Position numbers and translations under genes: made by a program. A DNA stretch of 64,000 bases. Source: Escherichia phage PNJ1809-36. The notes under the pieces were generated by a model that was not told the DNA's origin, searched no databases, and saw nothing but the letters and a program-made list of their open reading frames with translations. Shown here in pieces: positions 37,017-49,863 of this stretch; position 1 is the first letter of the stretch; every line of letters begins with the position of its first letter. The DNA lies in sequence record MT944117.1; one strand, given 5' to 3'.

Positions 37017-37053
37017 TATTGATTTCAGTTTAATAGGAAGAGAATTGTTAGAT

Positions 37054-38052
37054 ATGCCAGTAAAGAAGAGTATTGAAACATATATGGAAGAATGTAAGCC
37101 GATAGCTGAGGCTAAAGGGATTACCATTCTCGGCACGTATGGAGAAGATAAAGGTGTGCATACGAAGATGATCAATCGTTGTGAGCATGGTCATGAATGG
37201 AATACTACAACGTTTCACAGTTTTAAAGATGGTCGAGGTTGTCCTAAGTGCGCCTACAGGGAACGTTCGAAAAAGAGAAGCAAAGCTATCACTATTCCAG
37301 ACCAGCAACACATACAAGATTTTATGAAGGTAGGTAAATTTAAGGAAGGCACTATTTTCACCAATACAGGAGAACGTAAAGGGTGTGATATAGTATGGAT
37401 GGTTGAATGTCCTGTTTGCTCTCATGATGAATATGTGGAAGCTGGGGTGTGTGATGGTAAATTCTATGCTACCGGAAGTCATCTTAAACGTGGGTGTCTC
37501 CCTTGCCGCTGTTCTACAAGTTACAAATACACAGAGGATCAGACCACCTATAGAACAAGAAAGGAAGTAGAAAGGAGAGGATATATATGGGTAGGATGGA
37601 TCGGTAAACCTTCAACAATGGGTAAGTTTAAATATGGATGTAAGGAGCACGGGGAACAGATAGGGCGTGCAGATGGTTTGCTACATAAGGGGAGTGGGTG
37701 TCCGCAGTGCGGGGGCCAAAACCAACAACAATGTTACATTAATCATATTTATGATGAAGATGGTATTCTTTGTGCACTGAAGTTTGGTATTGCCAATAGT
37801 AGTGATCGCCGTATCAAAGAACAGAATAGCCGCAATGTGTTTACTATGAGACAAGTTCAAGTGTGGCAGTTCCCCACTGTGAAGCAGTGCAAAAATTCAG
37901 AAAAGTATTGCAAAAAGGTGTTAGACACAGAAGCAGTGAGCAAATATGCTATGCCAGACGGCTACACAGAAACAGTGGAGCTATCTTGTCTGGCATCAAT
38001 ACAAAACATTTATAAACTTTATGGTGGAATATTACAGGAGGAAACATGTTAG
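37054..38052 (+). CDS. Cys-rich protein with repeated CxxC pairs (about 332 aa)
   Basis: ORF track trimmed to ATG with AGGAAGAG SD; GCPKC, CPVC, CLPCRC, GCPQCGG suggest several zinc ribbons; fold unknown. Confidence 0.5.
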   Translation: MPVKKSIETYMEECKPIAEAKGITILGTYGEDKGVHTKMINRCEHGHEWNTTTFHSFKDGRGCPKCAYRERSKKRSKAITIPDQQHIQDFMKVGKFKEGTIFTNTGERKGCDIVWMVECPVCSHDEYVEAGVCDGKFYATGSHLKRGCLPCRCSTSYKYTEDQTTYRTRKEVERRGYIWVGWIGKPSTMGKFKYGCKEHGEQIGRADGLLHKGSGCPQCGGQNQQQCYINHIYDEDGILCALKFGIANSSDRRIKEQNSRNVFTMRQVQVWQFPTVKQCKNSEKYCKKVLDTEAVSKYAMPDGYTETVELSCLASIQNIYKLYGGILQEETC

Positions 38053-38424: not shown

Positions 38425-38613
38425 ATGGCACGTTTAGCAGATAACCCTGTATTCTACCCCGTTCTTGATCTTTATGATGAATTGACATATGTTGTGGAGC
38501 GGTATAATTACAATGAAGACCTCTTGGAGACAAACCTTAAAGTAGTTCTGATGAAAGCCTATCAGCAAGGGCAACGTGAAATTTTGGAGAGTATGAAAAA
38601 TGCGAATAACTGA
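38425..38613 (+). CDS. hypothetical protein (about 62 aa)
   Basis: ORF track trimmed to ATG with AAAGGAGAAA SD. Confidence 0.4.
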   Translation: MARLADNPVFYPVLDLYDELTYVVERYNYNEDLLETNLKVVLMKAYQQGQREILESMKNANN

Positions 38614-39142
38614 TGATTATGTATTCTTCTTTTCACATAAAGATGTTTTTAGTAATTGGTATATTGCACCCTTTACAGAAACCGAACCAAGTTACAATCA
38701 GACATTTAATTGTGTCGAACAATACATGATGTGGCGTAAAGCTTTGCTTTTTAATGATCACAACACTGCACAGGCTATTCTGACTCATAGCTTAAAACGA
38801 GAAGATGAGAAGATACAAGCTTATTACAAACGTATGGGTAGGGCAGTAGCAGGTTTCGATAACAAAATATGGGAAGAGAATCGTGAGCGTATTGTTATGC
38901 GAGGTTTATGCTTGAAGTATGTACAGAATCCAGACTTGTATGCCGATTTACGTCTATATCAATACAAAACATTTGTTGAAGCAAGTCCTTACGATAAGGT
39001 ATACGGAATTGGAATGGGGATGTATGAACCAGGGGTGCTAAACCCTGCCACCTGGAAAGGGCAGAATCTTTTAGGCAAATATCATAACAAACTGATCGAA
39101 ATACTTTTCCCAGACAAAATACCGCAAAGACGATATTTGTGA
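38600..39142 (+). CDS. NADAR (DUF1768, YbiA-like) domain protein
   Basis: 180 aa; FFFSHKDVFSNW, NCVEQYMMWRKALLF and ASPYDKVYGIGMG...GQNLLGKYHNKL parallel the E. coli YbiA/NADAR motifs (FSNF, EHYFQAQKF, DAYWGDG...GKNRLG). Confidence 0.7.
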   Translation: MRITDDYVFFFSHKDVFSNWYIAPFTETEPSYNQTFNCVEQYMMWRKALLFNDHNTAQAILTHSLKREDEKIQAYYKRMGRAVAGFDNKIWEENRERIVMRGLCLKYVQNPDLYADLRLYQYKTFVEASPYDKVYGIGMGMYEPGVLNPATWKGQNLLGKYHNKLIEILFPDKIPQRRYL

Positions 39143-39197: not shown

Positions 39198-39234
39198 AGG
39201 CTCCTACAGCACCGTAGAGAGCCTGTTATTTTGT
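39198..39234 (+). terminator. intrinsic terminator after NADAR gene
   Basis: aggcuccuac-AGCACC-guagagagccu followed by GUUAUUUUGU. Confidence 0.5.
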
Positions 39235-39365
39235 CCTATACAAACCCTTATCTTTTTCAGTTTGCATCACTAGGATTCGATCTAAGTGGGTTCCTGAAGG
39301 TTTACCAATAAGATTAAAGGTTATCTCAAATTCCCACTACCTATTATCTCAAAAATCCCTCAAAT

Positions 39366-39431
39366 TATTTAAACTTTTTAAGAATTTACAAAAGTGAAAG
39401 TTGAAAACCAAAATTTAAAGTTTAGGAAAAT
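39366..39431. repeat. direct repeat copy 1 (about 65 bp, AT-rich)
   Basis: atttaaac...tttacaaaagtgaaagttgaaaaccaaaatttaaagtttaggaaaatt, imperfect copy of 39505..39570. Confidence 0.6.
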
Positions 39432-39504
39432 TATCTTAAAATGTTAGATACAAAACAAAACTCAAAAGTCAAGGAAAATTTTAAAAATTTTGCGCGCCCA
39501 CAGT

Positions 39505-39570
39505 ATTTAAAGTTTTTTTGCTTTTACAAAAATGAAAGTACAAAAGCAAAATTTAAAGTTTACAAAAATT
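39505..39570. repeat. direct repeat copy 2
   Basis: atttaaag...tttacaaaaatgaaagtacaaaagcaaaatttaaagtttacaaaaattt. Confidence 0.6.
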
Positions 39571-39610
39571 TATGCAGATGGGAATGAGAAGAGTTCTCAT
39601 ATGGAAATGC

Positions 39611-39631
39611 AAATGATAATGATTCGCATTT
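39611..39631. promoter_or_regulatory. Fur-box-like operator A
   Basis: aaATGATAATGATTcgCATTt versus E. coli Fur consensus GATAATGATAATCATTATC. Confidence 0.4.
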
Positions 39632-39668
39632 AGGTTTATAAATGAGATTGATTCTTATTTGATAAGGT

Positions 39669-39689
39669 AAATGATAATCATTCTCATTT
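39669..39689. promoter_or_regulatory. Fur-box-like operator B
   Basis: aAATGATAATCATTcTCATTt. Confidence 0.45.
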
Positions 39690-39915
39690 AGAGAATGACG
39701 CGCAGGGGCGGTGTTTGTCTCGCGCTCCCGTGTCCCCTCGCCATGTAATAAGAATAACAGATCCAGCCAGGAAAGCAAGCGATTATTTTATCTTTACATT
39801 TCTTTACAAATATATAGCGCCCAGCCTACCGGCGATCAACCTTCCAACCAGCGCCCTGGTATGTTAGCCCCGCCTTTACGCCGTGGGGTGGCGCTTCCTC
39901 TTCTGTATGTAAAAC

Positions 39916-39946: not shown

Positions 39947-40213
39947 TTATTTTTTGTTTTCTTGCCAGGAAAGGACACCTAACCAAAAATGCATATCGCC
40001 CCGCGCCCCTGGTGGGATCTTGCTTTCCCCGCCGCCACTGCAAGCCCATAAATAACCATCAGCAAACGGATCAAAATGGTCTATCTCTTCCACCTTATGA
40101 TCGCCCAGGTTGAGAACGGTTTCAACCTTTAAGCCCGTTGCGCTTGCTACCTGGTGCACCGTGCCGCCTTGCCAGCCCAATGAGTGCATAAGGTGTAATG
40201 TAGTATTTGTCAT
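39947..40213 (-). CDS. hypothetical protein (88 aa) in GC-rich island
   Basis: ORF track; coding-like composition; upstream promoter TTGCTA-17-TATCAT at 40261..40289 and a GC leader hairpin. Confidence 0.35.
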   Translation of the reverse strand: MTNTTLHLMHSLGWQGGTVHQVASATGLKVETVLNLGDHKVEEIDHFDPFADGYLWACSGGGESKIPPGARGDMHFWLGVLSWQENKK

Positions 40214-40322: not shown

Positions 40323-40381
40323 TTGACGTTCGCCAGGTGGCGGCATAATATTTACCACGTAGGGCGGCAATGGTGCCGCTC
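40323..40381 (+). promoter_or_regulatory. promoter-hairpin cassette U1 (TTGACG-17-TAATAT, leader hairpin gggcggcAAUGGUgccgcuc)
   Basis: -35/-10 then a GC hairpin at the predicted transcript 5' end, then SD and ATG at 40401. Confidence 0.6.
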
Positions 40382-40400
40382 ATTATTTGGAGTTAAGATC

Positions 40401-40598
40401 ATGGCAACATTGCACATTGTGGCGAAAGCTGGACAAATCAACGTAATAGTAAACGGTTTTACTGAGTTCAGTCATCCCCAGGATGATCATGAAACGGTTT
40501 TATCTTTCATTGATTCACTGTTAGAAATGGGAGTAATTACAGAAGATCAGCATACTGCAAAATGCAAGCGCGTTAAGCAGATTGCAGGAATAGAATAA
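40401..40598 (+). CDS. hypothetical protein (about 65 aa)
   Basis: ORF track 40323..40598 trimmed to ATG after SD; the track start is the TTG of the -35 box. Confidence 0.45.
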   Translation: MATLHIVAKAGQINVIVNGFTEFSHPQDDHETVLSFIDSLLEMGVITEDQHTAKCKRVKQIAGIE

Positions 40599-40603
40599 AA
40601 GTC

Positions 40604-40666
40604 TTGACAACAAGCCACAACCTGATAAGATGTATCACATAGGGCGGCGGAATGGTCCAGCCGCTC
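40604..40666 (+). promoter_or_regulatory. promoter-hairpin cassette U2 (TTGACA-16-TAAGAT)
   Basis: Hairpin gggcggcggAAUGGUccagccgcuc. Confidence 0.6.
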
Positions 40667-40689
40667 ACAACAGAAGAGAGATTATAATC

Positions 40690-40962
40690 ATGGCATCATA
40701 TAGCGCAACAATGATCGTAGCTGGCACAACTGGTAAACCTATGAGCGGTGGCGGATCTTTCGCTAATATCAATATTGACGGGCGTTTATCCCTGGACGCA
40801 GCGATTGCCATTGCACGGGAAACATTTAAGAAAGAATGTAATTTCAACAAGCAAGATTATCTCGGTTTCGCTATTGAAAAAACCGCGCGCTTTGTTGATT
40901 ATAAAAGCCCGAAAATGGTTGATACTACACTAAAAGCGCAAGATGTAGCGTTTTTGCTTTAA
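40690..40962 (+). CDS. hypothetical protein (about 90 aa)
   Basis: ORF track trimmed to ATG with AGAAGAGAG SD. Confidence 0.45.
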   Translation: MASYSATMIVAGTTGKPMSGGGSFANINIDGRLSLDAAIAIARETFKKECNFNKQDYLGFAIEKTARFVDYKSPKMVDTTLKAQDVAFLL

Positions 40963-40965
40963 GGC

Positions 40966-41020
40966 TTGACATTAACGAATAATTTGTTAATATGTTACAT
41001 AAAGCGGGAATAGTTCCCGC
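40966..41020 (+). promoter_or_regulatory. promoter-hairpin cassette U3 (TTGACA-16-TAATAT)
   Basis: Hairpin gcgggaAUAGUUcccgc. Confidence 0.6.
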
Positions 41021-41038
41021 TATTTGTAAGGTGGTAGA

Positions 41039-41296
41039 ATGTTTTACATCAAATTAAAAGGTCACGTGATCGCGTTCAAAGATAACGCTTTTTACAGATT
41101 AGCAAAATATGCGTTAATACATCCCCACTATGTTTATATAAGGGGGCGTGATGAAATAAATATCTTTGATCAAACAACATGCGAGAACATCGAGATCCGC
41201 AAGGTTGGCGTACGTGATTATCGTACATCTTTCTACCCTTGCAAGGATTCAGCAAGTCTTTTTAAAGTATGCCAATTGTTGAAAAAAGGTGGTTAA
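41039..41296 (+). CDS. hypothetical protein (85 aa)
   Basis: ORF track. Confidence 0.45.
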   Translation: MFYIKLKGHVIAFKDNAFYRLAKYALIHPHYVYIRGRDEINIFDQTTCENIEIRKVGVRDYRTSFYPCKDSASLFKVCQLLKKGG

Positions 41297-41297
41297 T

Positions 41298-41855
41298 ATG
41301 GGCCGCGAATATGTGATCCAGTCTTGGGTAAAACATGAAGCAGATGATCCGCGCATCATTCCCGATCATCTTATCGATGAATCCACGGGATATAGCGGTG
41401 AGCAAATAGGTAACAGATTAGCACGTAGTAACGGCAACGTAAAAGCGCGTTATGTGCGCCCTGGCTGGCTGGCAAATGGTAACGCTGATTTATCCAGTGC
41501 GGAAGATGCGAGCGACGGCGCGAAAGATAATCCTTTGTACAAAGTTGATCCGGCTTTTCGTGTCCTGGATGAATACCCCAGCAAGATAGCGGCGCTTGAT
41601 GAAGCATTAGAAAGTAAGCGCATAACCTGGACCGCTTACAACATGGCAAAAAACGTACTTGATGGTAAATTGATTCAAGCCGAAAGAAAATTAGCCAAAA
41701 TTGCAGCCATAGCCCAGGAGGAAGACGAGGAGACAACGGAAGAGGAAGAGTACGAAGAGATCCCGCCGTTGTTGTGTATTGATGCTTTTCCTGATTATCA
41801 GCCGACAGAGGAAGAAAAAAGGATCGCACTAGAAAACTTTGAAAATAGTCTTTGA
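41298..41855 (+). CDS. hypothetical protein with acidic C-terminus (about 185 aa)
   Basis: ORF track trimmed to ATG; no own promoter. Confidence 0.45.
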   Translation: MGREYVIQSWVKHEADDPRIIPDHLIDESTGYSGEQIGNRLARSNGNVKARYVRPGWLANGNADLSSAEDASDGAKDNPLYKVDPAFRVLDEYPSKIAALDEALESKRITWTAYNMAKNVLDGKLIQAERKLAKIAAIAQEEDEETTEEEEYEEIPPLLCIDAFPDYQPTEEEKRIALENFENSL

Positions 41856-41910
41856 CATATCGCCGCCACTGGTATAATATTTACCACGTAGGGCGGCAAT
41901 GGTGCCGCTC
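41852..41910 (+). promoter_or_regulatory. promoter-hairpin cassette U4 (TTGACA-15-TATAAT)
   Basis: -35 overlaps upstream stop; hairpin identical to U1. Confidence 0.6.
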
Positions 41911-41937
41911 ATAGTGAAATTATGCAAGAGGTTTACA

Positions 41938-42033
41938 ATGATTAATAAAGAAAATAGCTTGACGGTTGGAACGATTAACGCTATCATTTTCGCCGTTCCA
42001 TTTTGGGTTGTAGTAGCGGCTATTATTTTCTAA
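41938..42033 (+). CDS. small hydrophobic peptide (31 aa)
   Basis: Manual translation MINKENSLTVGTINAIIFAVPFWVVVAAIIF; sole ORF behind cassette U4. Confidence 0.3.
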   Translation: MINKENSLTVGTINAIIFAVPFWVVVAAIIF

Positions 42034-42041
42034 AAATATTC

Positions 42042-42102
42042 TTGACAACGTTTTTTAATCTGATAAGATGTATCACATAGGGCGGCGGAATACTTCCCCG
42101 CC
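42042..42102 (+). promoter_or_regulatory. promoter-hairpin cassette U5 (TTGACA-16-TAAGAT)
   Basis: Hairpin gggcggcggaaUACuuccccgcc. Confidence 0.6.
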
Positions 42103-42123
42103 AAAACAAAAAAGGGTAACACA

Positions 42124-42486
42124 ATGAGCAAGCAAATCAATACTATCATGTTTAATCTGGTATCTTTCCGCGATGATATGAAAAATTTACCACGTGAAAC
42201 GGTTGATATTCATGTTTCAGCTTATCGCGCCCTTATTGATATGTTACCGCTAAAACGTGATCAACATGCCGCTAATATGATGCTTAATGCTATGCTTAAA
42301 AAGATGATTCAAACGGATCTTACTCTGGCGTATGAGTATCAAGGGCGCTTATATGCTACTTACAACAAGGCGGTACCTGGTCTGGGAAGTACCGAAGAGT
42401 TGCACGGCTTAAACTTGGATCAGAACACTTGGGATAGTATGCGCCGCGTTATGGTATGGGCCGAAAGCGGTAAAATTTACGAATAA
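42124..42486 (+). CDS. hypothetical protein (120 aa)
   Basis: ORF track. Confidence 0.45.
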   Translation: MSKQINTIMFNLVSFRDDMKNLPRETVDIHVSAYRALIDMLPLKRDQHAANMMLNAMLKKMIQTDLTLAYEYQGRLYATYNKAVPGLGSTEELHGLNLDQNTWDSMRRVMVWAESGKIYE

Positions 42487-42492
42487 AAACGG

Positions 42493-42552
42493 TTGACACT
42501 GTTTAAAATTCCGGTATAGTTTACCACATAGGGCGGGAAGTGGTTTCCCGCC
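42493..42552 (+). promoter_or_regulatory. promoter-hairpin cassette U6 (TTGACA-16-TATAGT)
   Basis: Hairpin gggcgggaaGUGGUuucccgcc. Confidence 0.6.
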
Positions 42553-42574
42553 AACAATGAAAAAGGTTATCATC

Positions 42575-42940
42575 ATGGCTATTAATATTAATGTTTCCTC
42601 TTATGCTACCCTGGCTAACACGGCTAAAATTGAATTATCCAGCATTGAGGCGGTGCATATTAGCGCCCGTCGCTGGTTTCAACAGTCCTACGGTAACACA
42701 TATTTTTCTTTAATGGTTGACGTTGAGATCGGCGGTAAACTGATCGAGGTGGTTAACGTTCCGTTTCAATATGGCTATGGTGATCATTTTGATACCGTCG
42801 CCCTGGAAGAATTTAGCAAGGTTATCAACCTTGAGGGCAAGGAATTTTCACGCGGCGCGTATCTTTCCCGTTTTTGCCGTGACAATGGGATCACTGTATA
42901 CAGTCATGCAAGCGATGTTAAACGTAAAAAAGATCTATAA
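42575..42940 (+). CDS. hypothetical protein (about 121 aa)
   Basis: ORF track 42557..42940 trimmed to second ATG (MAININ) by analogy with 43447. Confidence 0.4.
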   Translation: MAININVSSYATLANTAKIELSSIEAVHISARRWFQQSYGNTYFSLMVDVEIGGKLIEVVNVPFQYGYGDHFDTVALEEFSKVINLEGKEFSRGAYLSRFCRDNGITVYSHASDVKRKKDL

Positions 42941-42946
42941 AAAGCA

Positions 42947-43008
42947 TTGACAGCACGAATAAAAAGAGTAAACTGTATTACATAGAGAGCGGGAACACTT
43001 CCCGCCTC
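42947..43008 (+). promoter_or_regulatory. promoter-hairpin cassette U7 (TTGACA-16-TAAACT)
   Basis: Hairpin gcgggaaCACuucccgc. Confidence 0.6.
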
Positions 43009-43029
43009 ACTGAAAAAGAGAGAAAAATC

Positions 43030-43269
43030 ATGGCTAAATCTAAAATGTACAACGGTCACAAAAACAAAACTCATTGGAATGTAAGCCTGTGGATTAATAA
43101 CGATGAGGGATTGTATCGGTTTGCATTGGGATTGATCAATGAGTGCGGTAATAAAGATCAGGCGGCTGATTTAATGTGCTACCGTTTGAAACAGGATGGA
43201 ATCACTACAACGCCAGACGGCTTTAAGTATAGTAAAACTGCAATCCGCGCCGCTATGGTTGGAATGTAA
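43030..43269 (+). CDS. hypothetical protein (79 aa)
   Basis: ORF track. Confidence 0.45.
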   Translation: MAKSKMYNGHKNKTHWNVSLWINNDEGLYRFALGLINECGNKDQAADLMCYRLKQDGITTTPDGFKYSKTAIRAAMVGM

Positions 43270-43282
43270 AGGAGACATAAAA

Positions 43283-43363
43283 ATGAAACATCGTTCGACC
43301 TATCTCACAAAACGTTTTAGCTTAGATCATAAATTGGGCTATTACGGAAGAAATAGAAAATAA
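43283..43363 (+). CDS. possible 26-aa peptide
   Basis: AAGGAGACATAAAA then ATG; MKHRSTYLTKRFSLDHKLGYYGRNRK; very short. Confidence 0.2.
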   Translation: MKHRSTYLTKRFSLDHKLGYYGRNRK

Positions 43364-43364
43364 T

Positions 43365-43424
43365 TTGACAACGTTTAAAATTAGTGTAAGATGTATCACA
43401 TAGGGCGGGAAGTGGTTTCCCGCC
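43365..43424 (+). promoter_or_regulatory. promoter-hairpin cassette U8 (TTGACA-16-TAAGAT)
   Basis: Hairpin identical to U6. Confidence 0.6.
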
Positions 43425-43446
43425 AACAACAGAGAGATTAAAGATT

Positions 43447-43674
43447 ATGGCTATCAATATTGTTCGTGTATCCGGCACCGTTGGCAGTTCCCAGGTTGTA
43501 GCAGTTGTAACAAACAAAAAGATTAATGATGTATGTGAGATCTTGAATAAGTGGGCTATTGCTAATTTTGGAGAATATGCGAGCGTCGAGTACATCGAAT
43601 CCTACCAGGTGCCAACCATCAGCCTAACCGATCTCAACGTTGATCGCCTGTTATGCCTGGATGAATTAATCTGA
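43447..43674 (+). CDS. hypothetical protein (75 aa)
   Basis: ORF track. Confidence 0.45.
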   Translation: MAINIVRVSGTVGSSQVVAVVTNKKINDVCEILNKWAIANFGEYASVEYIESYQVPTISLTDLNVDRLLCLDELI

Positions 43675-43683
43675 AAAAGATTG

Positions 43684-43741
43684 TTGACACGGGAAAGAAA
43701 AAGAGTAAACTGTATTACGTAGGGCGGCAATGGTGCCGCTC
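43684..43741 (+). promoter_or_regulatory. promoter-hairpin cassette U9 (TTGACA-16-TAAACT)
   Basis: Hairpin identical to U1. Confidence 0.6.
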
Positions 43742-43764
43742 ACAACAGAAGAGAGATTATCACG

Positions 43765-43980
43765 ATGGCTAATATCCGCACACTGTTAAAAAATGCAAGT
43801 CAAGTTTTATTTTCAGATGACGAGTATTTCAATAAAGACATTACGGGCGTAAAAAGTCTTAAAGATGTAAAGGATGTAATAGGTATTCGCGGATCTTTAC
43901 GTAAGGGCGATTACTACGGTAACAAGGTGCAATATAAACTGTCAAAAGATTATGATTTTACTTTGACAATTATCAACTAA
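43765..43980 (+). CDS. hypothetical protein (71 aa)
   Basis: ORF track. Confidence 0.45.
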   Translation: MANIRTLLKNASQVLFSDDEYFNKDITGVKSLKDVKDVIGIRGSLRKGDYYGNKVQYKLSKDYDFTLTIIN

Positions 43981-43991
43981 GGGATCACAAA

Positions 43992-44150
43992 ATGAAAACT
44001 TGCCAATGTGGTAAAAAGTCTATCTCTGGTTTAAAACGTGGCGTTGCTCTTTGTCAATACCACTATAACGCTCAAACGTGGGGTAAGCAGTGGGCGGATC
44101 AGGTGGAAGAGGCAAAGAAAGAAAATATAAAAGTAGTTGCAAAGAAATAA
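43992..44150 (+). CDS. hypothetical small Cys-containing protein (52 aa)
   Basis: Manual translation MKTCQCGKKSISGLKRGVALCQYHYN... Confidence 0.35.
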   Translation: MKTCQCGKKSISGLKRGVALCQYHYNAQTWGKQWADQVEEAKKENIKVVAKK

Positions 44151-44199
44151 AAATAGAGTAAACTGTATTACATCAAGGCGGCGGAATGGTCCACCGCCT
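44137..44199 (+). promoter_or_regulatory. promoter-hairpin cassette U10 (TTGCAA-16-TAAACT)
   Basis: Hairpin ggcggcggAAUGGUccaccgcc. Confidence 0.5.
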
Positions 44200-44222
44200 A
44201 ACAAAGAGAAGAGGAAAATATC

Positions 44223-44390
44223 ATGATCACTTTCGCTACCCGTGAAGCCGCTCGCAACGTTGCACGTAAAGTTAACGCCGCCAACTTGGGCGCTACGCTT
44301 AAAGCCCCTGTAAAAGATGAATCAGGAAAATGGATCTTACCTGGTCTGCGTCATGCTGACAAGTTAGGTACTTTAAGCCTTAAAAAATAA
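44223..44390 (+). CDS. hypothetical basic protein (55 aa)
   Basis: Manual translation MITFATREAARNVARKVNAANLG... Confidence 0.4.
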   Translation: MITFATREAARNVARKVNAANLGATLKAPVKDESGKWILPGLRHADKLGTLSLKK

Positions 44391-44393
44391 TCG

Positions 44394-44431
44394 TTGACTT
44401 TTCGTTATAGCGCCTTATAATGGGCGCTATA
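44394..44431 (+). promoter_or_regulatory. promoter U11 (TTGACT-16-TATAAT) with -10 inside the loop of a 9-bp palindrome
   Basis: tatagcgccTTATAATGggcgctata. Confidence 0.5.
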
Positions 44432-44464
44432 GAGAAGAGAAACCACTATTAACAAGGAAACATC

Positions 44465-44686
44465 ATGATTACTTTTGCTATTGTCGCCGTTGTTGCTGGT
44501 CAGGTTTACGTAAACGAGACATTTACTACAGAAGACAAGGCCGCAGGAGATATAACCGCCGTTTACAATGAGTGCAAGGCAGTAGAAAGGATGTTATCGC
44601 CTTGTATGCTAATGAGTGAACGTCAGGATGGGATAACAGTATTTACTAACATTGAAACAGGGTACCAAATGGTAGTAACAAAATAA
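44465..44686 (+). CDS. hypothetical protein (73 aa)
   Basis: ORF track. Confidence 0.45.
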   Translation: MITFAIVAVVAGQVYVNETFTTEDKAAGDITAVYNECKAVERMLSPCMLMSERQDGITVFTNIETGYQMVVTK

Positions 44687-44689
44687 AGC

Positions 44690-44747
44690 TTGACACGTAT
44701 TTAATTTTCAGTAAACTGTTACACGTAGGGCGGGAATAGTTCCCGCT
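44690..44747 (+). promoter_or_regulatory. promoter-hairpin cassette U12 (TTGACA-16-TAAACT)
   Basis: Hairpin gggcgggaAUAGUUcccgcu. Confidence 0.6.
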
Positions 44748-44764
44748 AAAAAGAGAGAAAGACC

Positions 44765-45118
44765 ATGAAAGCACAAAATGCAATTAAAGAGTACATCCTT
44801 GCCGCTATCGATTTTAATGATTATGGTATTACAACCGAAAAAGAGAAGATCGCGGAATTGATGCGCCGTTTTAATTCCGAGTACTGGTACCCTGATAACC
44901 AATCACGTTTTAATTATAGTATTGTTAAAGCACTTGCATCATGGTTACAAGGTTTGCCATCAGATATTAATATCGCTTTCGAATATTGGGAAATTGATCG
45001 CTTGTTAACATCCTGGGGATACATTAAAGAGAATAGCAGCGATGATAAAATCCAACGAGAAAGGGAAAATTATTGGCTTTATATTGCAGGCGTGATCCTT
45101 GCTTGCTCTTATGAATGA
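44765..45118 (+). CDS. hypothetical protein (117 aa)
   Basis: ORF track. Confidence 0.45.
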   Translation: MKAQNAIKEYILAAIDFNDYGITTEKEKIAELMRRFNSEYWYPDNQSRFNYSIVKALASWLQGLPSDINIAFEYWEIDRLLTSWGYIKENSSDDKIQRERENYWLYIAGVILACSYE

Positions 45119-45124
45119 TAAACC

Positions 45125-45178
45125 TTGACAATTTTACAAAACAGTTTAAATTAATAATATAGCGGCAATGGTGCCGCT
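45125..45178 (+). promoter_or_regulatory. promoter-hairpin cassette U13 (TTGACA, AT-rich -10 region)
   Basis: Hairpin agcggcAAUGGUgccgcu; exact -10 register ambiguous. Confidence 0.5.
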
Positions 45179-45197
45179 CATATAAAGAGGAAACAAA

Positions 45198-45344
45198 ATG
45201 AATACATCTAATCGCGCAGAAAAAATTCAATCTTCCAAGATCCGCAAGGCCTGGAATGAGGAAGTGATCCGCAAAGGCGACAAGCGCAATAAAACAAAGC
45301 GCGGGAAGAGTGACAAATATAATTGGATGGATTTAGAGAATTAA
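45198..45344 (+). CDS. hypothetical basic protein (48 aa)
   Basis: Manual translation MNTSNRAEKIQSSKIRKAWNEEVIRKG... Confidence 0.4.
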   Translation: MNTSNRAEKIQSSKIRKAWNEEVIRKGDKRNKTKRGKSDKYNWMDLEN

Positions 45345-45350
45345 CATAAC

Positions 45351-45378
45351 AAGGGCGCACCAAGCGCCCTTTCTTTTT
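45351..45378 (+). terminator. intrinsic terminator, copy 1 of a duplicated 28-mer
   Basis: aagggcgcACCAAgcgcccuu followed by UCUUUUU; same sequence at 50806..50833. Confidence 0.7.
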
Positions 45379-45399
45379 ACATGTAGAGGATAAACAAAA

Positions 45400-45585
45400 A
45401 TGACTTTAAACGAGCTTAAAACAGCCTATAACGCAACATTAAAAATAGCCGTGCGTTACCGTGACGAATACGGTTTTATTGCGCAGGGCGTGATCCTGGG
45501 CTTTTCTGACGATGGTTTGATCTATGTTGATGCACATCACAACAAGGTTAAACTTGAAAACGTCATTAGCATAAAATATCTTTAA
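45400..45585 (+). CDS. hypothetical protein (61 aa)
   Basis: ORF track. Confidence 0.4.
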   Translation: MTLNELKTAYNATLKIAVRYRDEYGFIAQGVILGFSDDGLIYVDAHHNKVKLENVISIKYL

Positions 45586-45591
45586 AAGTGG

Positions 45592-45651
45592 TTGACACCA
45601 TAACCGGACCTGTTAAACTGTATTACATCAGGCGGGGAATAGTTCCCCACC
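45592..45651 (+). promoter_or_regulatory. promoter-hairpin cassette U14 (TTGACA-16-TAAACT)
   Basis: Hairpin ggcggggaAUAGuuccccacc. Confidence 0.55.
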
Positions 45652-45670
45652 ATACAAAAAGGTAAATATT

Positions 45671-45877
45671 ATGATCACCGCAAAACAAGAAAAAATCATT
45701 ATCGACGTTGCAGCCGTTGCCGCTATTGCTATTATCGGTACCTACTATGACACCGCGCGTCCTTCCTCCTTGCATGAGATCGCCGCCGTTGCATCAGTTG
45801 GCGTGCTGTTTTACGTTGGTAAACGTTATTTATCACCAATGATTAACAAGCTGACACCGTGGAAAAATAAAGGTTGA
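45671..45877 (+). CDS. small membrane protein (68 aa)
   Basis: ORF track; hydrophobic segments. Confidence 0.45.
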   Translation: MITAKQEKIIIDVAAVAAIAIIGTYYDTARPSSLHEIAAVASVGVLFYVGKRYLSPMINKLTPWKNKG

Positions 45878-45932
45878 TCCTGTTTTATATTGTGTTATAG
45901 TTATCGTGTAGGGCGGCAATGGTGCCGCGCCC
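45874..45932 (+). promoter_or_regulatory. promoter-hairpin cassette U15 (TTGATC-16-TATAGT)
   Basis: Hairpin gggcggcAAUGGUgccgcgccc. Confidence 0.5.
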
Positions 45933-45948
45933 CTTTGAGGATGCAATC

Positions 45949-46233
45949 ATGAGTAAAGCTAACACCGTGCTAATGTTTTCCCTGATTAATGATCCCGCTT
46001 ACTTGTCCAACATGACGCAGGAGGGTAACACATTAACGGCAACATTCACCAATAAGCTTGACCGAGTGATCATCATCTCACTGAAAACAGTTAGTAAAGG
46101 CTTTTACTCGTTAGCTTATCATTGGATCACTGATACCGATGAGACAAGCCAGGACTATAGCGCCCCTTTCCCTGAATCAATGGCACGGGAGATCATCGCC
46201 GCCGTTGTAAATGATGGTTTGTTTACTGCATAA
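45949..46233 (+). CDS. hypothetical protein (about 94 aa)
   Basis: ORF track 45919..46233 trimmed; the track start is the AUG inside the hairpin loop. Confidence 0.45.
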   Translation: MSKANTVLMFSLINDPAYLSNMTQEGNTLTATFTNKLDRVIIISLKTVSKGFYSLAYHWITDTDETSQDYSAPFPESMAREIIAAVVNDGLFTA

Positions 46234-46251
46234 AATAATTTAGAAAAAGGC

Positions 46252-46308
46252 TTGCAATCATTTTGAGATAGTGTATATTTAATTCATAGGGCGGCGGGAA
46301 TAGTTCCC
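46252..46308 (+). promoter_or_regulatory. promoter-hairpin cassette U16 (TTGCAA-16-TATATT)
   Basis: Hairpin gggaaUAGuuccc with 5' gggcggc extension. Confidence 0.5.
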
Positions 46309-46331
46309 AAAGCAAACGAGAGGATTACACG

Positions 46332-46451
46332 ATGAGCAAGTACACAGTAGAATACACGGTAGAGAATCCGGTAGTATCCGAAGGTAAAAAGATGACATTT
46401 GCCATCAGTATAATCGCTTTCGTTGTCACTATCTTATCAATCATCTTATAA
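46332..46451 (+). CDS. small membrane-anchored protein (39 aa)
   Basis: Manual translation MSKYTVEYTVENPVVSEGKKMTFAISIIAFVVTILSIIL. Confidence 0.35.
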   Translation: MSKYTVEYTVENPVVSEGKKMTFAISIIAFVVTILSIIL

Positions 46452-46461
46452 GGTGCACACC

Positions 46462-46623
46462 ATGAAAATAACAGACATTATCAAAGAGATCGCCCTTGCC
46501 GCTGGCGTTGAAGTCGAGGAAGTGATCGCGCTCAATCTTACAGAAAACGATCTGCGCAACTATGAAGCGGAAAGCGTGAAAGCAAGCGGCGCGGTCCTGG
46601 TATATGATCCGGCTAACAAGTAA
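46462..46623 (+). CDS. hypothetical protein (about 53 aa)
   Basis: ORF track 46423..46623 trimmed to ATG with AAGGTG SD. Confidence 0.4.
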   Translation: MKITDIIKEIALAAGVEVEEVIALNLTENDLRNYEAESVKASGAVLVYDPANK

Positions 46624-46632
46624 GGGGATAAC

Positions 46633-46743
46633 ATGAATCCGAAAGATATGCAAGCATGGAAAGGGTACGACGATCTAAGCGCCTTGCGCAATAAGTCAAG
46701 CCGTAACCTTAGACGGTTGGAAGCAAAGAAAAAGAAAAAATAG
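46633..46743 (+). CDS. possible basic peptide (36 aa)
   Basis: Manual translation MNPKDMQAWKGYDDLSALRNKSSRNLRRLEAKKKKK. Confidence 0.3.
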   Translation: MNPKDMQAWKGYDDLSALRNKSSRNLRRLEAKKKKK

Positions 46744-46744
46744 T

Positions 46745-46802
46745 TTGACAAGTCCGCGTAGTCTGATAATATGTATCTTGTAGCGCGGCAATGGTGCCGC
46801 TC
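46745..46802 (+). promoter_or_regulatory. promoter-hairpin cassette U17 (TTGACA-16-TAATAT)
   Basis: Hairpin gcgcggcAAUGGUgccgcuc. Confidence 0.6.
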
Positions 46803-46821
46803 ACAAGAAGAGAGAAAAATC

Positions 46822-47106
46822 ATGAAAATTACAAAAAGCCTAACTAATTATGCAGCACGTCGCGGATTATGCTTAACCGTTGAAAACTTAGGGAAAGAAG
46901 ACTTTTTGTGTTTTTGGGAGCTTGAGAATGATTGCGAGTGGATGTTTTCTTATTCTATCTGCGAAGATCAAAACGGTTGTTTGTTAACCTGGCGCGGTAA
47001 TATCTATTTACCGGAAGAAATTAAAGAAGAGTTACCAGGTACGATCATGACAGAGAGACAGCTTAAGGAAGTGATCAATTTTGTAGGGCAAAACATTAAA
47101 AAATAA
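46822..47106 (+). CDS. hypothetical protein (about 94 aa)
   Basis: ORF track 46771..47106 trimmed to ATG. Confidence 0.45.
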   Translation: MKITKSLTNYAARRGLCLTVENLGKEDFLCFWELENDCEWMFSYSICEDQNGCLLTWRGNIYLPEEIKEELPGTIMTERQLKEVINFVGQNIKK

Positions 47107-47107
47107 T

Positions 47108-47170
47108 TTGACAGTAGGCAAACAACGTAGTAAAGTTTATTACATAGAGCGGCGGAATGGTCCACCGCTC
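47108..47170 (+). promoter_or_regulatory. promoter-hairpin cassette U18 (TTGACA-17-TAAAGT)
   Basis: Hairpin gagcggcggAAUGGUccaccgcuc. Confidence 0.6.
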
Positions 47171-47191
47171 ACAACAGAAGAGAAACAAATC

Positions 47192-47362
47192 ATGATCCCG
47201 ACTATGTTTTATGTATCGCGCAAAGGTCACAATATTTTTTGGTCTGAAGATTTAAATGAAGCTATGACGTTTGCCCGTGATCGTGTTGCTATCGGTGGCG
47301 TTAACATCACCGTAACCGATGAAAATGGCATTGAATACTATAACGGCGACGATGAAGAATAA
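47192..47362 (+). CDS. hypothetical protein (about 56 aa)
   Basis: ORF track 47108..47362 trimmed; the track start is the -35 TTG. Confidence 0.4.
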   Translation: MIPTMFYVSRKGHNIFWSEDLNEAMTFARDRVAIGGVNITVTDENGIEYYNGDDEE

Positions 47363-47369
47363 TTAATGA

Positions 47370-47390
47370 GGCGGGGGAGTATTCCCCGCC
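47370..47390 (+). other. intercistronic GC hairpin without promoter
   Basis: ggcggggGAGUAUUccccgcc between the stop at 47362 and the next SD. Confidence 0.45.
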
Positions 47391-47409
47391 GTCAATAAAG
47401 AGGTAAATC

Positions 47410-47679
47410 ATGAAAATATCATTAGACGTTGCAATCAAGGCCATCGAATCTGGTTACATCCTGGTAAAAGATGATAAGGCTAAAATAGTGCATCATGTTA
47501 ACAAGGAAACAGGTGAAAGCATGATCACATATAAAGCCGCCTACTTTCTCCAATCAGTAGCAGATCCGCGCGTACAACGCCAGGTTACGGCGGCTATTGC
47601 TAAAAAATTATGTGCTTTACAGGGTACAAGTTTTAACGAGATCGCCCCGTGTTTTGAGTGGTCAAGCTTGAAAAAATAA
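47410..47679 (+). CDS. hypothetical protein (89 aa)
   Basis: ORF track. Confidence 0.45.
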   Translation: MKISLDVAIKAIESGYILVKDDKAKIVHHVNKETGESMITYKAAYFLQSVADPRVQRQVTAAIAKKLCALQGTSFNEIAPCFEWSSLKK

Positions 47680-47680
47680 T

Positions 47681-47742
47681 TTGACAACAATTATAAATCG
47701 GGTAGAATGTATTTCGTAGGGCGGGGCAATAAGGCAACGCCC
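47681..47742 (+). promoter_or_regulatory. promoter-hairpin cassette U19 (TTGACA-16-TAGAAT)
   Basis: Hairpin gggcg-(14-nt loop)-cgccc. Confidence 0.5.
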
Positions 47743-47760
47743 ATTAATGAGGGTAGAATC

Positions 47761-47865
47761 ATGTTAGAGAAAATTTTCACGGTCGTAGTAGTGGGCCTGG
47801 CGTTATCGGTTGGAGTGGTTGCGACTATGGCTAACATGATCCTATCTTCCCACGGTATCGGCTAA
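47761..47865 (+). CDS. small hydrophobic peptide (34 aa)
   Basis: Manual translation MLEKIFTVVVVGLALSVGVVATMANMILSSHGIG. Confidence 0.3.
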   Translation: MLEKIFTVVVVGLALSVGVVATMANMILSSHGIG

Positions 47866-47879
47866 AAGAGAGACACAAC

Positions 47880-48266
47880 ATGAAAACAGAAATCATTATT
47901 GAAATCATCAACGGCTATAAAGAAGCCTTTATTTTTGCTGAATCAGCAAGGGATCATGAAGGTAATTTTATTGATAACTTAGACGATTATGATTTTTCTC
48001 CTAGCGCGGACGAACGGATCGCCCAGGATGTAACAGCCTTTATTAATGCTAATCTTGCCGCTATCTCTGAGGCAATGAGCGACGGCGCAACAGCCAACCA
48101 GATCGGGAATGATTTACATTTTACCCGTAACAGTCACGGCGTAGGCTTTTGGGATCGCCCTGAAATATACACCACTAACACAGCCAACCGCCTAACCAAT
48201 GCAGCTAAGTTTATGCCGAACGTGTCGGCTTACATTGGTGAAGATAATTTGATTTATATTGAATAA
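47880..48266 (+). CDS. hypothetical acidic protein (128 aa)
   Basis: ORF track. Confidence 0.45.
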   Translation: MKTEIIIEIINGYKEAFIFAESARDHEGNFIDNLDDYDFSPSADERIAQDVTAFINANLAAISEAMSDGATANQIGNDLHFTRNSHGVGFWDRPEIYTTNTANRLTNAAKFMPNVSAYIGEDNLIYIE

Positions 48267-48272
48267 AAAGTA

Positions 48273-48329
48273 TTGACACAGATCGCCAGTGTGCTAATAT
48301 TTACCACGTAGGGCGGCAATGGTGCCGCC
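48273..48329 (+). promoter_or_regulatory. promoter-hairpin cassette U20 (TTGACA-16-TAATAT)
   Basis: Hairpin gggcggcAAUGGUgccgcc (no wobble pair). Confidence 0.6.
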
Positions 48330-48347
48330 GATAATGAGGAAAGTAAA

Positions 48348-48647
48348 ATGGAAACTATCGCTATTGTTACCGTAGAAAAACTGGTTGTTGGTGATGTATT
48401 CGCGTTAATGGTGCCTAACAGCAGCAAGCTGGGCGCTTATGAAGTAATGGATCATAAAAATGAATCATTTGGCGACGGTTGCACAATGGCGGTAAAATCC
48501 TTAAAGGATGGAATCATCCGTCAAGCTAATTGGCACAAAGGGAATCAAGTCGGATTAATATCAGCTAATTTCTTGCCAGAAGAGCAAACGTTAGACCAAC
48601 TATCAGGCGGTAAGACGTTAGCCGAACTACTGGAAACAGCGATCTAA
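48348..48647 (+). CDS. hypothetical protein (99 aa)
   Basis: ORF track. Confidence 0.45.
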   Translation: METIAIVTVEKLVVGDVFALMVPNSSKLGAYEVMDHKNESFGDGCTMAVKSLKDGIIRQANWHKGNQVGLISANFLPEEQTLDQLSGGKTLAELLETAI

Positions 48648-48655
48648 TCAACAAA

Positions 48656-48669
48656 GGGCGGCAACGCCC
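48656..48669 (+). other. intercistronic GNRA-tetraloop hairpin
   Basis: gggcgGCAAcgccc. Confidence 0.45.
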
Positions 48670-48690
48670 CACATCAGAAAGGAAAAGATT

Positions 48691-48927
48691 ATGAGTATTG
48701 CAACAGTATTAACCGCCGTTAAAACCGCTGAATCATCCGGCTTGCATGTTGAGCTTATAGATCAACCAGGTGGCGATCTCCTTGTCCAGGTTTACCCGCC
48801 GAAAGTAGGAGATGATTATTATTGGTGCTATTCTGATACGTTCGAACAAGTAGACACGAAAGCGATCACGGCTTTTATTTTAAAAGCTGTTGAAGAAAAT
48901 AACTTTCATTATAACATCAATCAATAA
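48691..48927 (+). CDS. hypothetical protein (78 aa)
   Basis: ORF track. Confidence 0.45.
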   Translation: MSIATVLTAVKTAESSGLHVELIDQPGGDLLVQVYPPKVGDDYYWCYSDTFEQVDTKAITAFILKAVEENNFHYNINQ

Positions 48928-48937
48928 ACTTTAAGCA

Positions 48938-48951
48938 GGGCGGTAACGCCC
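48938..48951 (+). other. intercistronic GNRA-tetraloop hairpin
   Basis: gggcgGUAAcgccc. Confidence 0.45.
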
Positions 48952-48982
48952 TATTAAACGCAATAGGAAGAGGATAGAAAGC

Positions 48983-49273
48983 ATGAAAAAGATGATCGCA
49001 GTAGTTGCCCTGGTTGTTGGTATTAACGCGCCTGCAATGGCTAATGATTTGCCTGAATCCATCACGTTAACCGATATCAACGCGGTAAACCGGATCGGTG
49101 TTAATTATCGCCTATGCCTTGCCGCTAAAACTTTCCAGGACGGCACGACAGAATACCACGGATTCGAGGGTATCCGCTGCGGTGAGCTTGCACGCGACCT
49201 TAAGGAAGATCCAGACCTTGAGGCCATACCGATGACCGTAAACGGTAAAGCTTACGTAAACCGCCAACAATGA
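48983..49273 (+). CDS. secreted protein (96 aa)
   Basis: ORF track; signal peptide MKKMIAVVALVVGINAPAMA. Confidence 0.45.
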   Translation: MKKMIAVVALVVGINAPAMANDLPESITLTDINAVNRIGVNYRLCLAAKTFQDGTTEYHGFEGIRCGELARDLKEDPDLEAIPMTVNGKAYVNRQQ

Positions 49274-49284
49274 GAAAGGTAATC

Positions 49285-49404
49285 ATGACAATGGGGATCA
49301 TAGTAGCAACGCTGGCGCTGATCCCCTTCCTGGTTGAATATGTGCTGATTAGTGTTGTCCTGGTAGTCAGTGACTTATTGGAAACGGTTGGCACCTGGTT
49401 TTAA
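49285..49404 (+). CDS. small membrane protein (39 aa)
   Basis: Manual translation MTMGIIVATLALIPFLVEYVLISVVLVVSDLLETVGTWF. Confidence 0.35.
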   Translation: MTMGIIVATLALIPFLVEYVLISVVLVVSDLLETVGTWF

Positions 49405-49416
49405 GGAGTAATAAAA

Positions 49417-49608
49417 ATGAATGCAGAACAAGTTAGAAAGGTATTAGCAGCGTTGCGGTATCACAACCATAGCAAGGTAAAGAATGATCCTGATTATGTG
49501 GATTCAAGCCTGGAAGAAGACACATTGCAAGCTATAAGCCATATGCAAGAATTGTTTAAGCGTATGACAGAGAAAAACAGATCTGATTATATAGGTGACG
49601 AGATCTAA
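49417..49608 (+). CDS. hypothetical protein (63 aa)
   Basis: ORF track. Confidence 0.45.
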   Translation: MNAEQVRKVLAALRYHNHSKVKNDPDYVDSSLEEDTLQAISHMQELFKRMTEKNRSDYIGDEI

Positions 49609-49614
49609 TCCTTA

Positions 49615-49647
49615 CAAAAACAGGGCTTGCTTTTGTCCTGTTTTTTG
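49615..49647 (+). terminator. intrinsic terminator
   Basis: aaaacagg-(12-nt loop)-ccuguuuu followed by UUG. Confidence 0.5.
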
Positions 49648-49785
49648 TTATACTTATTGAACGGGCGGCACCTGGTAGCAGGGGAAGATAATCACCGGAC
49701 GACCCCGCTATATATTGATAGCTAACATCTATCAAACAACAAAACATCAAAGAAATAAACTATCAAATCTTTACAATGCTACCTA

Positions 49786-49846
49786 TTGACACCGGATCAC
49801 GCTTACATTATTATTTATCACGTAGGGCGAGCAATACAGCAAGCCC
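49786..49846 (+). promoter_or_regulatory. promoter-hairpin cassette U21 (TTGACA-17-TATTAT)
   Basis: Hairpin gggcgagcAAUACagcaagccc. Confidence 0.5.
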
Positions 49847-49863
49847 ACAAAGAGGAAAATAAA

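Follow-up and report, generated by a model that had tools for sequence, protein, structure and literature searches.

The window analysed here is a stretch of 64,000 nucleotides from Escherichia phage PNJ1809-36 (sequence record MT944117.1; positions are counted from its first letter), and our subject is an AT-rich array of long direct repeats that lies in a 1.2-kb gap behind the gene for a NADAR protein (38600–39142; NADAR domain, E = 4e-36). Judging from the sequence, the window belongs to a phAPEC8-like coliphage of Phapecoctavirus (Stephanstirmvirinae), a ~150-kb rV5-related myovirus, because the 1.8 kb around the repeats is near-identical to vB_EcoM_ASO2A, phAPEC8 and others: the identity is 99.2% to Escherichia phage vB_EcoM_ASO2A and 94–97% to phAPEC8, ESCO5, ESCO13, tuntematon and many more. 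A minus-strand block from position 1 to ~32.3 kb carries genes for replication and nucleotide metabolism (family-A polymerase, a primase-helicase of the T7 type, UvrD helicase and anaerobic ribonucleotide reductase). It is followed by a plus-strand block (32.4–39.1 kb), the last genes of which encode an AAA+ ATPase, an HNH/CapR endonuclease and the NADAR protein. The gap that comes next holds one small open reading frame (ORF) of 88 amino acids (aa) on the minus strand, together with the repeat-bearing module, at a distance of ~7 kb from where the polymerase/primase-helicase module starts.

A repeat search places two direct repeats of 72 nt in this gap, at 39361–39432 and 39499–39570; they are identical at 59 of 72 positions without gaps (82%), with a start-to-start spacing of 138 bp. 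The original prediction, which was made from the letters of the window, had described two AT-rich direct repeats of 65 bp directly beyond a terminator in an ORF-free stretch; both the pair and its setting are borne out, with a somewhat greater unit length. The array starts ~130 nt past the terminator hairpin of the NADAR operon, and most relatives annotate no gene at this place. In 500 dinucleotide-preserving shuffles of 39230–39580, the best 72-nt pair had 36.6 ± 1.6 matches and at most 42, so the similarity of the repeats exceeds an effect of AT-richness. A partial third copy, comprising the right half only, is found between them (39449–39481, 73% identity), and no further copies of the unit or of its words were found elsewhere across the 64-kb window. 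The two full copies are called units 1 and 3 below; unit 3 holds an internal inverted repeat of 9–10 bp (TTTGCTTTT...AAAAGCAAA). The GC content of 39363–39562 is 21.5%, and no other 200–300 bp of the 64 kb are as AT-rich or as thermodynamically weak as the array. Unit 1 is flanked by three TTATCTYAAA words; this word has a patchy distribution and is also present on the array-distal side in BIS47 and contig L019, in equal relative orientation (TTTGAGATAA on the ORF-side strand).

Among ~64 Phapecoctavirus records, 39300–39600 shows 95–100% identity (mostly 97–100%), and the surrounding 1.8 kb shows 94–97%. For a footprint comparison we used a clade with ~79% identity to the window (phiWec179, phiWec181, phiWec186, phiWec188 and 'PsgM04F'). 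Here, unit 1 is 78–82% and unit 3 is 81–85% identical; outside the units the identity is 56–60% in the DNA before the array, 61–64% in the inter-unit stretch and 17% in the 12-nt link to the adjacent Fur-like boxes. At four positions both units have switched to the same new base in this clade (for example CAAAATTTAAAG to CAAATTCTAAAG in both copies), where ~0.6 (0.59) such positions are expected (P of about 0.003). By these comparisons, the repeats are under selection. The four parallel changes therefore suggest that the copies are kept alike, either because they exchange sequence or because they are selected for likeness, and the copies are therefore likely to be functionally equivalent.

More distant relatives were reached via homologues of the 88-aa ORF and via the conserved core of the gap, which matches 357 phage records. 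In Justusliebigvirus (muut and VEcB) the NADAR protein is 58% identical and the order of ATPase, endonuclease, NADAR, gap, small minus-strand ORF and early genes is retained; the gap contains three AT-rich units in tandem, spaced at 67 and 75, which have box 1 (ATTATTTAAAGTTTTT) and AAAATGAAA(A)GT in common with the units of the window. Three direct repeats are also found at the equivalent position in rV5 and typing phage 5 (spacings of 74 and 65), in CR9 and phiTE (63 and 78), in BIS47 (67 and 74) and in GEC_vB_MG (67 and 75). The distance from the first to the third unit is 139–142 bp in all of these relatives, compared with 138 bp in the window. Because the sister genera hold a full middle unit there and the span is constant, the pair in the window represents units 1 and 3, and 39449–39481 the remainder of unit 2. 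In six other phages of five further genera, the arrays consist of three direct repeats of 60–75 nt; the unit lengths differ (63–78 nt) and are not multiples of three. Position, unit number, total span and total length (208–212 bp) are conserved; unit sequence and AT-richness are not, the GC content of the array being 21–22% in Stephanstirmvirinae, 32–35% in Vequintavirus, Mydovirus and Seunavirus, and 46–49% in Certrevirus, where it equals the locus average. Every rV5-like myovirus examined (Stephanstirmvirinae and Vequintavirinae) keeps the array at the far end of a large non-coding control module. Absence of the repeats from relatives had been named at the outset as an outcome that would speak against their significance; we found the opposite, with relatives in six genera carrying them.

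The Vequintavirinae unit has the form ...GAAAAYGAAA..GATCGAGACCC with clustered GATC sites. A profile of this unit detects the arrays of contigs L019 and L021 (E = 1e-7 to 6e-6) and gives no significant match to the Stephanstirmvirinae arrays (best E = 0.13); the unit sequence is therefore lineage-specific. Pairwise scores between the units of the two subfamilies favoured the opposite strand (in muut); the profile was not significant, and neither homology nor inversion is claimed. Contig L018 was considered as a lineage without the array and rejected, as it is a different phage type that shares only the small ORF. Outside phages, no match to the module was found in E. coli genomes, and the sole plasmid match, a record of 137.6 kb, probably represents a phage.

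The unit lengths are unequal and not multiples of three while the span is constant, which fits a spatial constraint on DNA better than a coding sequence or a processed RNA; DNA geometry is also favoured because Phapecoctavirus keeps the spacing despite the decayed middle unit. The array could instead give a non-coding RNA, transcribed leftward from two promoter-like sites beyond the boxes (P1 and P2) and U-rich here, that by analogy might sequester, as a sponge or decoy, either an RNA-binding protein of the host or a defence based on RNA. Two conserved promoter-like sites do lead into an ORF-free region, the units are kept alike and a precedent exists in an rV5-like phage, namely the pseudo-ToxI of phiTE (PMC3475682). 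Pseudo-ToxI is, however, a different locus, at 106.7 kb in phiTE compared with 38.9–40.1 kb for the module, and identity of the two was rejected. The units and the whole array folded no more stably than their shuffles, whichever strand was used (z from −1.1 to +1.4), an Rfam search at E ≤ 10 over 38–42 kb gave chance matches only and none on the repeats, and no tRNAs were found. The units are not arranged head to tail and differ in length within a constant total span; the decay of the Phapecoctavirus middle unit with retention of the spacing again suits DNA better, and the resemblance between muut and Vequintavirinae units, weak and not significant in the profile test, sits on the strand opposite to the promoters. 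A type III antitoxin-like repeat RNA was rejected for the same kind of reason: the units are of 72 nt and lie 138 bp apart with a non-repeat spacer, with no fold signal and no Rfam match. We thus regard an RNA product as unlikely.

The repeats had also been proposed to mark a genome end. An AT-rich repeat after a terminator would suit a physical end or a packaging (pac) site, and the record of phage ETEC-TG starts at window position 39314, inside the gap. This record is circular with an arbitrary origin, and other records begin at many different places, so its start was rejected as a genome end. Korf et al. (PMC6563267) linearised their assemblies where reads stop abruptly and reported a terminal repeat of 328 bp for Schickermooser (Phapecoctavirus); in the Schickermooser record, the opening and closing 329 bases are exactly the same. 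This terminal repeat maps to 51754–52082 of the window with 96% identity, 12.2 kb to the right of the repeats studied here, which in turn match Schickermooser at 136.8–137.1 kb, 14 kb short of its right end. The phage phiTE is circularly permuted by Bal-31 digestion (PMC3475682) and rV5 is likewise described as permuted (rV5 paper), and the module with its three-unit array is found in both of these as well as in the terminal-repeat phage Schickermooser. The position of the Schickermooser terminal repeat and the presence of the module in permuted phiTE contradict the genome-end claim, and an end or pac site at the repeats is scarcely tenable. The module appears to have a role independent of ends, as it is present in permuted phiTE and in terminal-repeat Schickermooser, and because it is kept in permuted phiTE and rV5 a function bound to a fixed DNA end can be excluded for practical purposes. 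The terminal-repeat equivalent is present once in the window (a collapsed assembly) and begins with the most AT-rich 100 nt of the window (GC content 17%). On its minus strand (~51821–51831) is an 11-nt word, ATTATTTAAAC, which equals box 1 of unit 1 and adjoins the Fur-like box at 51828–51846.

A pause or boundary signal during DNA entry, by analogy with the injection stop signal of phage T5, also depends on distance from an end. Between the module and the right genome end are 12.3 kb (about 8%) of DNA filled with small early genes that are transcribed endward, and the T5 region is ~1.2 kb of untranslated DNA with two 66-bp direct repeats, further repeat arrays and ordered host-protein sites (bioRxiv 10.1101/866236). 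A permuted genome has no fixed end distance, however, and the module is kept in permuted phiTE and rV5; PVP-SE1 (Seunavirus, the genus of GEC_vB_MG) is also cited as permuted. The module contains no DnaA boxes, and there is no sign of two-step injection in the group. We consider a role in DNA entry very improbable.

The rest of the module was aligned in both subfamilies in the direction from the small ORF to the repeats, which is the minus strand of the window. Its order is the 88-aa ORF, P1, a GC-rich element, TTTGTAAAGAAATGTAAAG, P2, a GC-rich hairpin, the Fur-like boxes, the array and the terminator of the convergent operon (Table 1). A 114-aa plus-strand ORF that overlaps the 88-aa ORF has no family match. 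P1 is kept as TTGAC[AG]-N17-TATACT in muut, phiWec179, L021 and phiTE, with a variant -10 in CR9 and rV5, and its spacer contains the terminator hairpin of the 88-aa ORF. The GC-rich element is near-invariant between Stephanstirmvirinae and Vequintavirinae, the flanking proteins of which are 40–58% identical; it has no Rfam match, is too invariant for a covariation test (one compensatory pair) and could be an undescribed phage RNA or DNA site. P2 consists of a conserved GCTTGC -35 (39778–39773) followed by TATTCT and points leftward over the boxes into the array. Both promoter-like sites thus aim across the boxes at the array, with no ORF downstream of either; the terminator hairpin beyond it may also stop leftward transcripts that cross the array.

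Fur-like boxes (AATGAKAATCATTCTCATT) have ten matches in the window, compared with 0.07 expected. Three to five of them with 29-nt phasing are conserved in all rV5-like genera examined. Away from the array there is one at 51040–51058 and two inside the terminal-repeat equivalent (51828–51846 and 52007–52025), and none anywhere else. The box at 52007 overlaps the -10 region of a promoter-like site, TTGCAT-N18-GATAAT.

Table 1. Positions in the window of the repeat units, of the remaining parts of the module and of the genome-end equivalent.
Feature	Position	Strand	Sequence or form	Basis or remarks
Terminator hairpin that ends the NADAR operon	39199–39234	+	T-rich tail	Sequence; annotated equivalently in phAPEC8 and ASO2A
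TTATCTYAAA words (three) flanking unit 1	39321, 39344, 39431 (39321–39440)	+		Patchy distribution
Repeat unit 1	39361–39432		Box 1 ATTATTTAAACTTTTT, TTTACAAAAGTGAAAGT, CAAAATTTAAAGTTTA	59/72 to unit 3
Remnant of decayed middle unit	39449–39481		Right half only	73% to matching parts of units 1 and 3
Repeat unit 3	39499–39570		Box 1 GTATTTAAAGTTTTT, TTTACAAAAATGAAAGT, CAAAATTTAAAGTTTA	Repeat search, clade comparison
Fur-box-like palindromes (four)	39583–39600, 39612–39630, 39641–39659, 39670–39688 (39583–39691)		29-nt phasing, abutting the array	Repeat search
Promoter-like site P2 and GC-rich hairpin	39692–39778	-	Loop GAGACAAACACC	Alignment across subfamilies; putative promoter
GC-rich element, ~90–100 nt	39800–39905	-	GCGCCACCCCACGGCGTAAAGGCGGGGCTAAC...GGAAGGTTGATCGCCGG, then TTTGTAAAGAAATGTAAAG	Cross-subfamily alignment
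Promoter-like site P1	39916–39944	-	TTGACA-17-TATACT, 11/12	Consensus scan; points leftward
88-aa ORF, heads the leftward unit	39947–40213	-		phrog_19316, E = 4.5e-59; relatives 40–99% identity
Equivalent of the 329-bp Schickermooser direct terminal repeat (genome end by homology), outside the module	51754–52082			Sequence mapping

To the right of the module, from 40323 to 50330, the plus strand carries ~20 early promoters (TTGACA-N17-TAnnnT), each with a small gene downstream; those checked carry a conserved hairpin, GGGCGGCAATGGTGCCGC, at the transcript start. Strong early-type promoters had been expected to follow the repeats, and they do so from 40323 onward. A strand switch had been placed at the repeats as well, and this part did not hold: the major switch and the turn in GC skew are instead at ~32.3–33 kb, and locally there is just the 88-aa ORF on the minus strand. 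The hairpin GGGCGGCAATGGTGCCGC is the 'PHIRE promoter' motif of the phAPEC8 annotation, and is really a 5′ stem-loop and not a promoter.

The units themselves might be promoters: each could be a weak sigma-70 promoter with an A/T-rich UP element, forming a rightward tandem pair. A consensus scan gives TTTACA-18-CAAAAT (9/12) in both units, and TTTACA does not vary between units 1 and 3 or between the two Phapecoctavirus-like clades. Matches of 9/12 are, however, common in AT-rich DNA (15 sites of such quality in the region against 7.2 expected), the -10 is without its first T, TTTACA is lost in two of the three muut units and the Vequintavirinae units have no such hexamers. The units show no resemblance to the real early promoters of the phage with their 5′ hairpin, and no rightward gene lies downstream, just the boxes and the antisense of P1 and P2. 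This explanation seems quite improbable to us.

A platform for transcription control is a more serious competitor. The units would be operator-like sites that, together with the Fur-like boxes, govern the P1/P2 unit or keep the early region insulated against the NADAR operon, for instance as an early-to-middle or an iron-dependent switch, with a regulator of phage or host origin. The footprint, the concerted change and the conserved geometry fit this idea equally well. Convergent units enclose the array, one closing at the NADAR terminator and the opposing one led by P1/P2, and the module stands at the head of the ~20 early promoters. Boxes of the Fur type are well known as operators, and within the terminal repeat such boxes overlap hexamers that resemble promoters. 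Against this, there is nothing to regulate downstream of P1/P2 except the array and the terminator, the array is 170–380 nt downstream of P2, whereas operators usually overlap promoters, and no regulator was identified. We hold this alternative to be possible but less likely than not to be the right one.

On balance, we think that the array acts as DNA via a bound factor. A DNA-level element is favoured by the maintained likeness of the copies, by a geometry that is constant although the sequence is lineage-specific, and by the absence of an RNA fold signal; iteron-like behaviour, in particular, is suggested because the unit sequence is lineage-specific while the copies stay alike. We infer DNA-level action, a binding factor and an origin function, the last from anatomy and analogy: the array may be an iteron-like platform that serves as a transcription-activated replication origin, which is a tentative proposal. 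As in iteron origins, one sequence recurs in several direct repeats that match one another inside a genome and diverge from lineage to lineage; the easily melted adjacent stretch of such origins is seen in the window and also in Justusliebigvirus. It is not seen in Certrevirus, the array of which has the same GC content as the locus. Iterons for a DNA-binding protein had been among the first suggestions for the repeats; the footprint, the parallel changes, the three-unit geometry and the lack of RNA structure are consistent with this, whereas no binding protein was identified.

Mechanistically, the array of ~210 bp would present the same short words in each unit to one sequence-specific factor; here, these words would be box 1 TATTTAAA[C/G]TTTTT, TTTACAAAA[G/A]TGAAAGT and CAAAATTTAAAGTTT. 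The specificity of the factor would differ between phage lineages. The fixed spacing would allow the bound units to assemble one nucleoprotein complex beside the phased Fur-like boxes. P1 and P2, which resemble early host-type promoters, would fire from the small-ORF side, over the boxes and into the array, which in Stephanstirmvirinae is the easiest-melting DNA of the region. Incoming transcription would then activate the array as an origin that combines iterons with unwinding, and phage DNA replication would begin there.

Several points weigh against an origin of this kind. The extreme AT-richness is not conserved (46–49% GC in Certrevirus), and because it is lost there unwinding cannot be a shared property. 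Classical iterons are 17–22 bp in length, far shorter than the units of 60–75 bp here, and phages with a T7-type replisome are able to initiate replication without iterons. DnaA boxes are absent from 39.1–40.4 kb, the nearest TTWTNCACA being at 33702. No initiator or DNA-binding gene was recognised beside the module: a generic AAA+ ATPase is encoded 2.4 kb upstream and the other neighbours have no assigned function. No inflection of the GC skew at the repeats was seen beyond an effect of gene class. The literature on this phage group holds no replication data: the rV5 paper describes the replication origin of the group as unknown, with a skew analysis of rV5 that merely tracked transcription. 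In the full-text literature we found no account of the array, of the module, of Fur boxes in these phages or in lytic phages, or of the replication origin of the group, and fur, ihf, hfq, dnaA and seqA all go unmentioned in a screen for host factors of a V5-like phage.

A more specific version of the proposed origin would make it an iron-gated replication or control switch common to rV5-like phages, with host Fur on the phased boxes between the promoters and the array. Whether transcription gets as far as the array and turns it on as an origin would depend on the iron status of the host, and the Fur-like boxes in the terminal repeat would make early transcription from the genome end respond to iron as well. 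We consider this version doubtful.

Some observations concern the neighbourhood and relatives of the module. In contig L019 (IMGVR_UViG_3300026472_000003), positions 2960–3450 hold ~470 nt of extra, apparently coding DNA between the P2-like site and a duplicated promoter-like site with hairpin; Fur-like boxes are not clearly visible in this contig, yet four GAAAAAGCTATCGAGACCC repeats remain. Contig L017 (IMGVR_UViG_3300032893_000735), an unrelated viral contig of 106 kb, encodes a 40%-identical homologue of the 88-aa ORF, ~900 nt downstream of which is a tandem array with an 18-nt period and a length of ~600 nt (3632–4261). The HNH/CapR endonuclease gene (37045–38052) is a 1008-nt ORF here, and its annotated length ranges from 999 to 1461 nt among close relatives; this may reflect a mobile homing-endonuclease gene or merely differing start-codon calls. 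The records of Campylobacter phage B15, Acinetobacter phage vB_AbaM_ABPW7 and Klebsiella phage ZCKP1 are 95–99% identical to E. coli Phapecoctavirus in this region, and 'Pseudomonas phage PsgM04F' clusters with the E. coli phiWec phages at ~79% identity to the window. For B15, ABPW7 and PsgM04F, the host given in the label seems questionable.

Annotation in GenBank goes no further than the box region, which is entered as 'repeat_region' (for example in tuntematon and muut). What was an isolated repeat pair becomes a defined cis-element conserved across subfamilies, with coordinates, a footprint and a geometry, in a group (the rV5-, phi92- and phAPEC8-like myoviruses) that is widely used in phage-therapy cocktails. 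If the array is an origin, it would offer a handle for phage engineering, for instance for minimal replicons or conditional replication, and would exemplify an origin in which long composite units adjoin the sites of a host metalloregulator. The interest would rise further if the Fur boxes gate its activity. Even if it is not an origin, the array calls for an explanation, since few non-coding elements in these genomes are under comparable constraint.

Among known systems, ori-lambda has four 19-bp dyad-symmetric binding sites for the O protein beside an AT-rich stretch and is activated by transcription. The module is similar in that phased palindromic boxes of ~19–21 bp adjoin an AT-rich stretch bearing repeats, promoter-like sites point there and the repeats vary between relatives. 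It differs in that the palindromes resemble host Fur boxes and that there are direct-repeat units, 60–75 bp in length, three in number and with a fixed span of ~140 bp; the module is also intergenic rather than within an initiator gene, and no initiator was recognised. The primary origin of T7 consists of the tandem promoters 1.1A and 1.1B followed by an AT-rich region, and ori(uvsY) and ori(34) of T4 consist of a promoter with a downstream unwinding element. Here, two tandem promoter-like sites are likewise followed by the least stable DNA, in a phage with a T7-type primase-helicase and a family-A polymerase. Unlike in T7 and T4, the promoters are host sigma-70-like, boxes and a hairpin intervene before the AT-rich part, and this part is organised as conserved repeats and loses its AT-richness in Certrevirus. 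The crr of P4 has two direct repeats of ~120 bp at a distance of ~60 bp, each with iterons for the alpha primase-helicase. The window shares with it two long direct repeats, a non-repeat spacer of about one unit and a replication protein of the primase-helicase type; the units are shorter, were ancestrally three and have no second iteron site elsewhere in the window.

The injection stop region of T5 (Repeat Region 3; bioRxiv 10.1101/866236) resembles the module in being more than 1 kb of untranslated DNA that is conserved better than the neighbouring genes, with direct repeats of ~66–72 bp, ordered host-protein sites, a position ~8% from the end and small early genes alongside. The ordered sites are DnaA boxes in T5, whereas here they are Fur-like boxes and no DnaA boxes are present. 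Unlike in T5, the terminal repeat here is only 329 bp and excludes the module, which persists in relatives reported to be permuted. Pseudo-ToxI of phiTE (PMC3475682) consists of 36-nt head-to-tail units with pseudoknots and resembles a known antitoxin, whereas the units here are 72 nt in length, non-contiguous, unstructured and without an Rfam family; like the array, it is a non-coding direct repeat of an rV5-like phage, the copies of which are kept similar.

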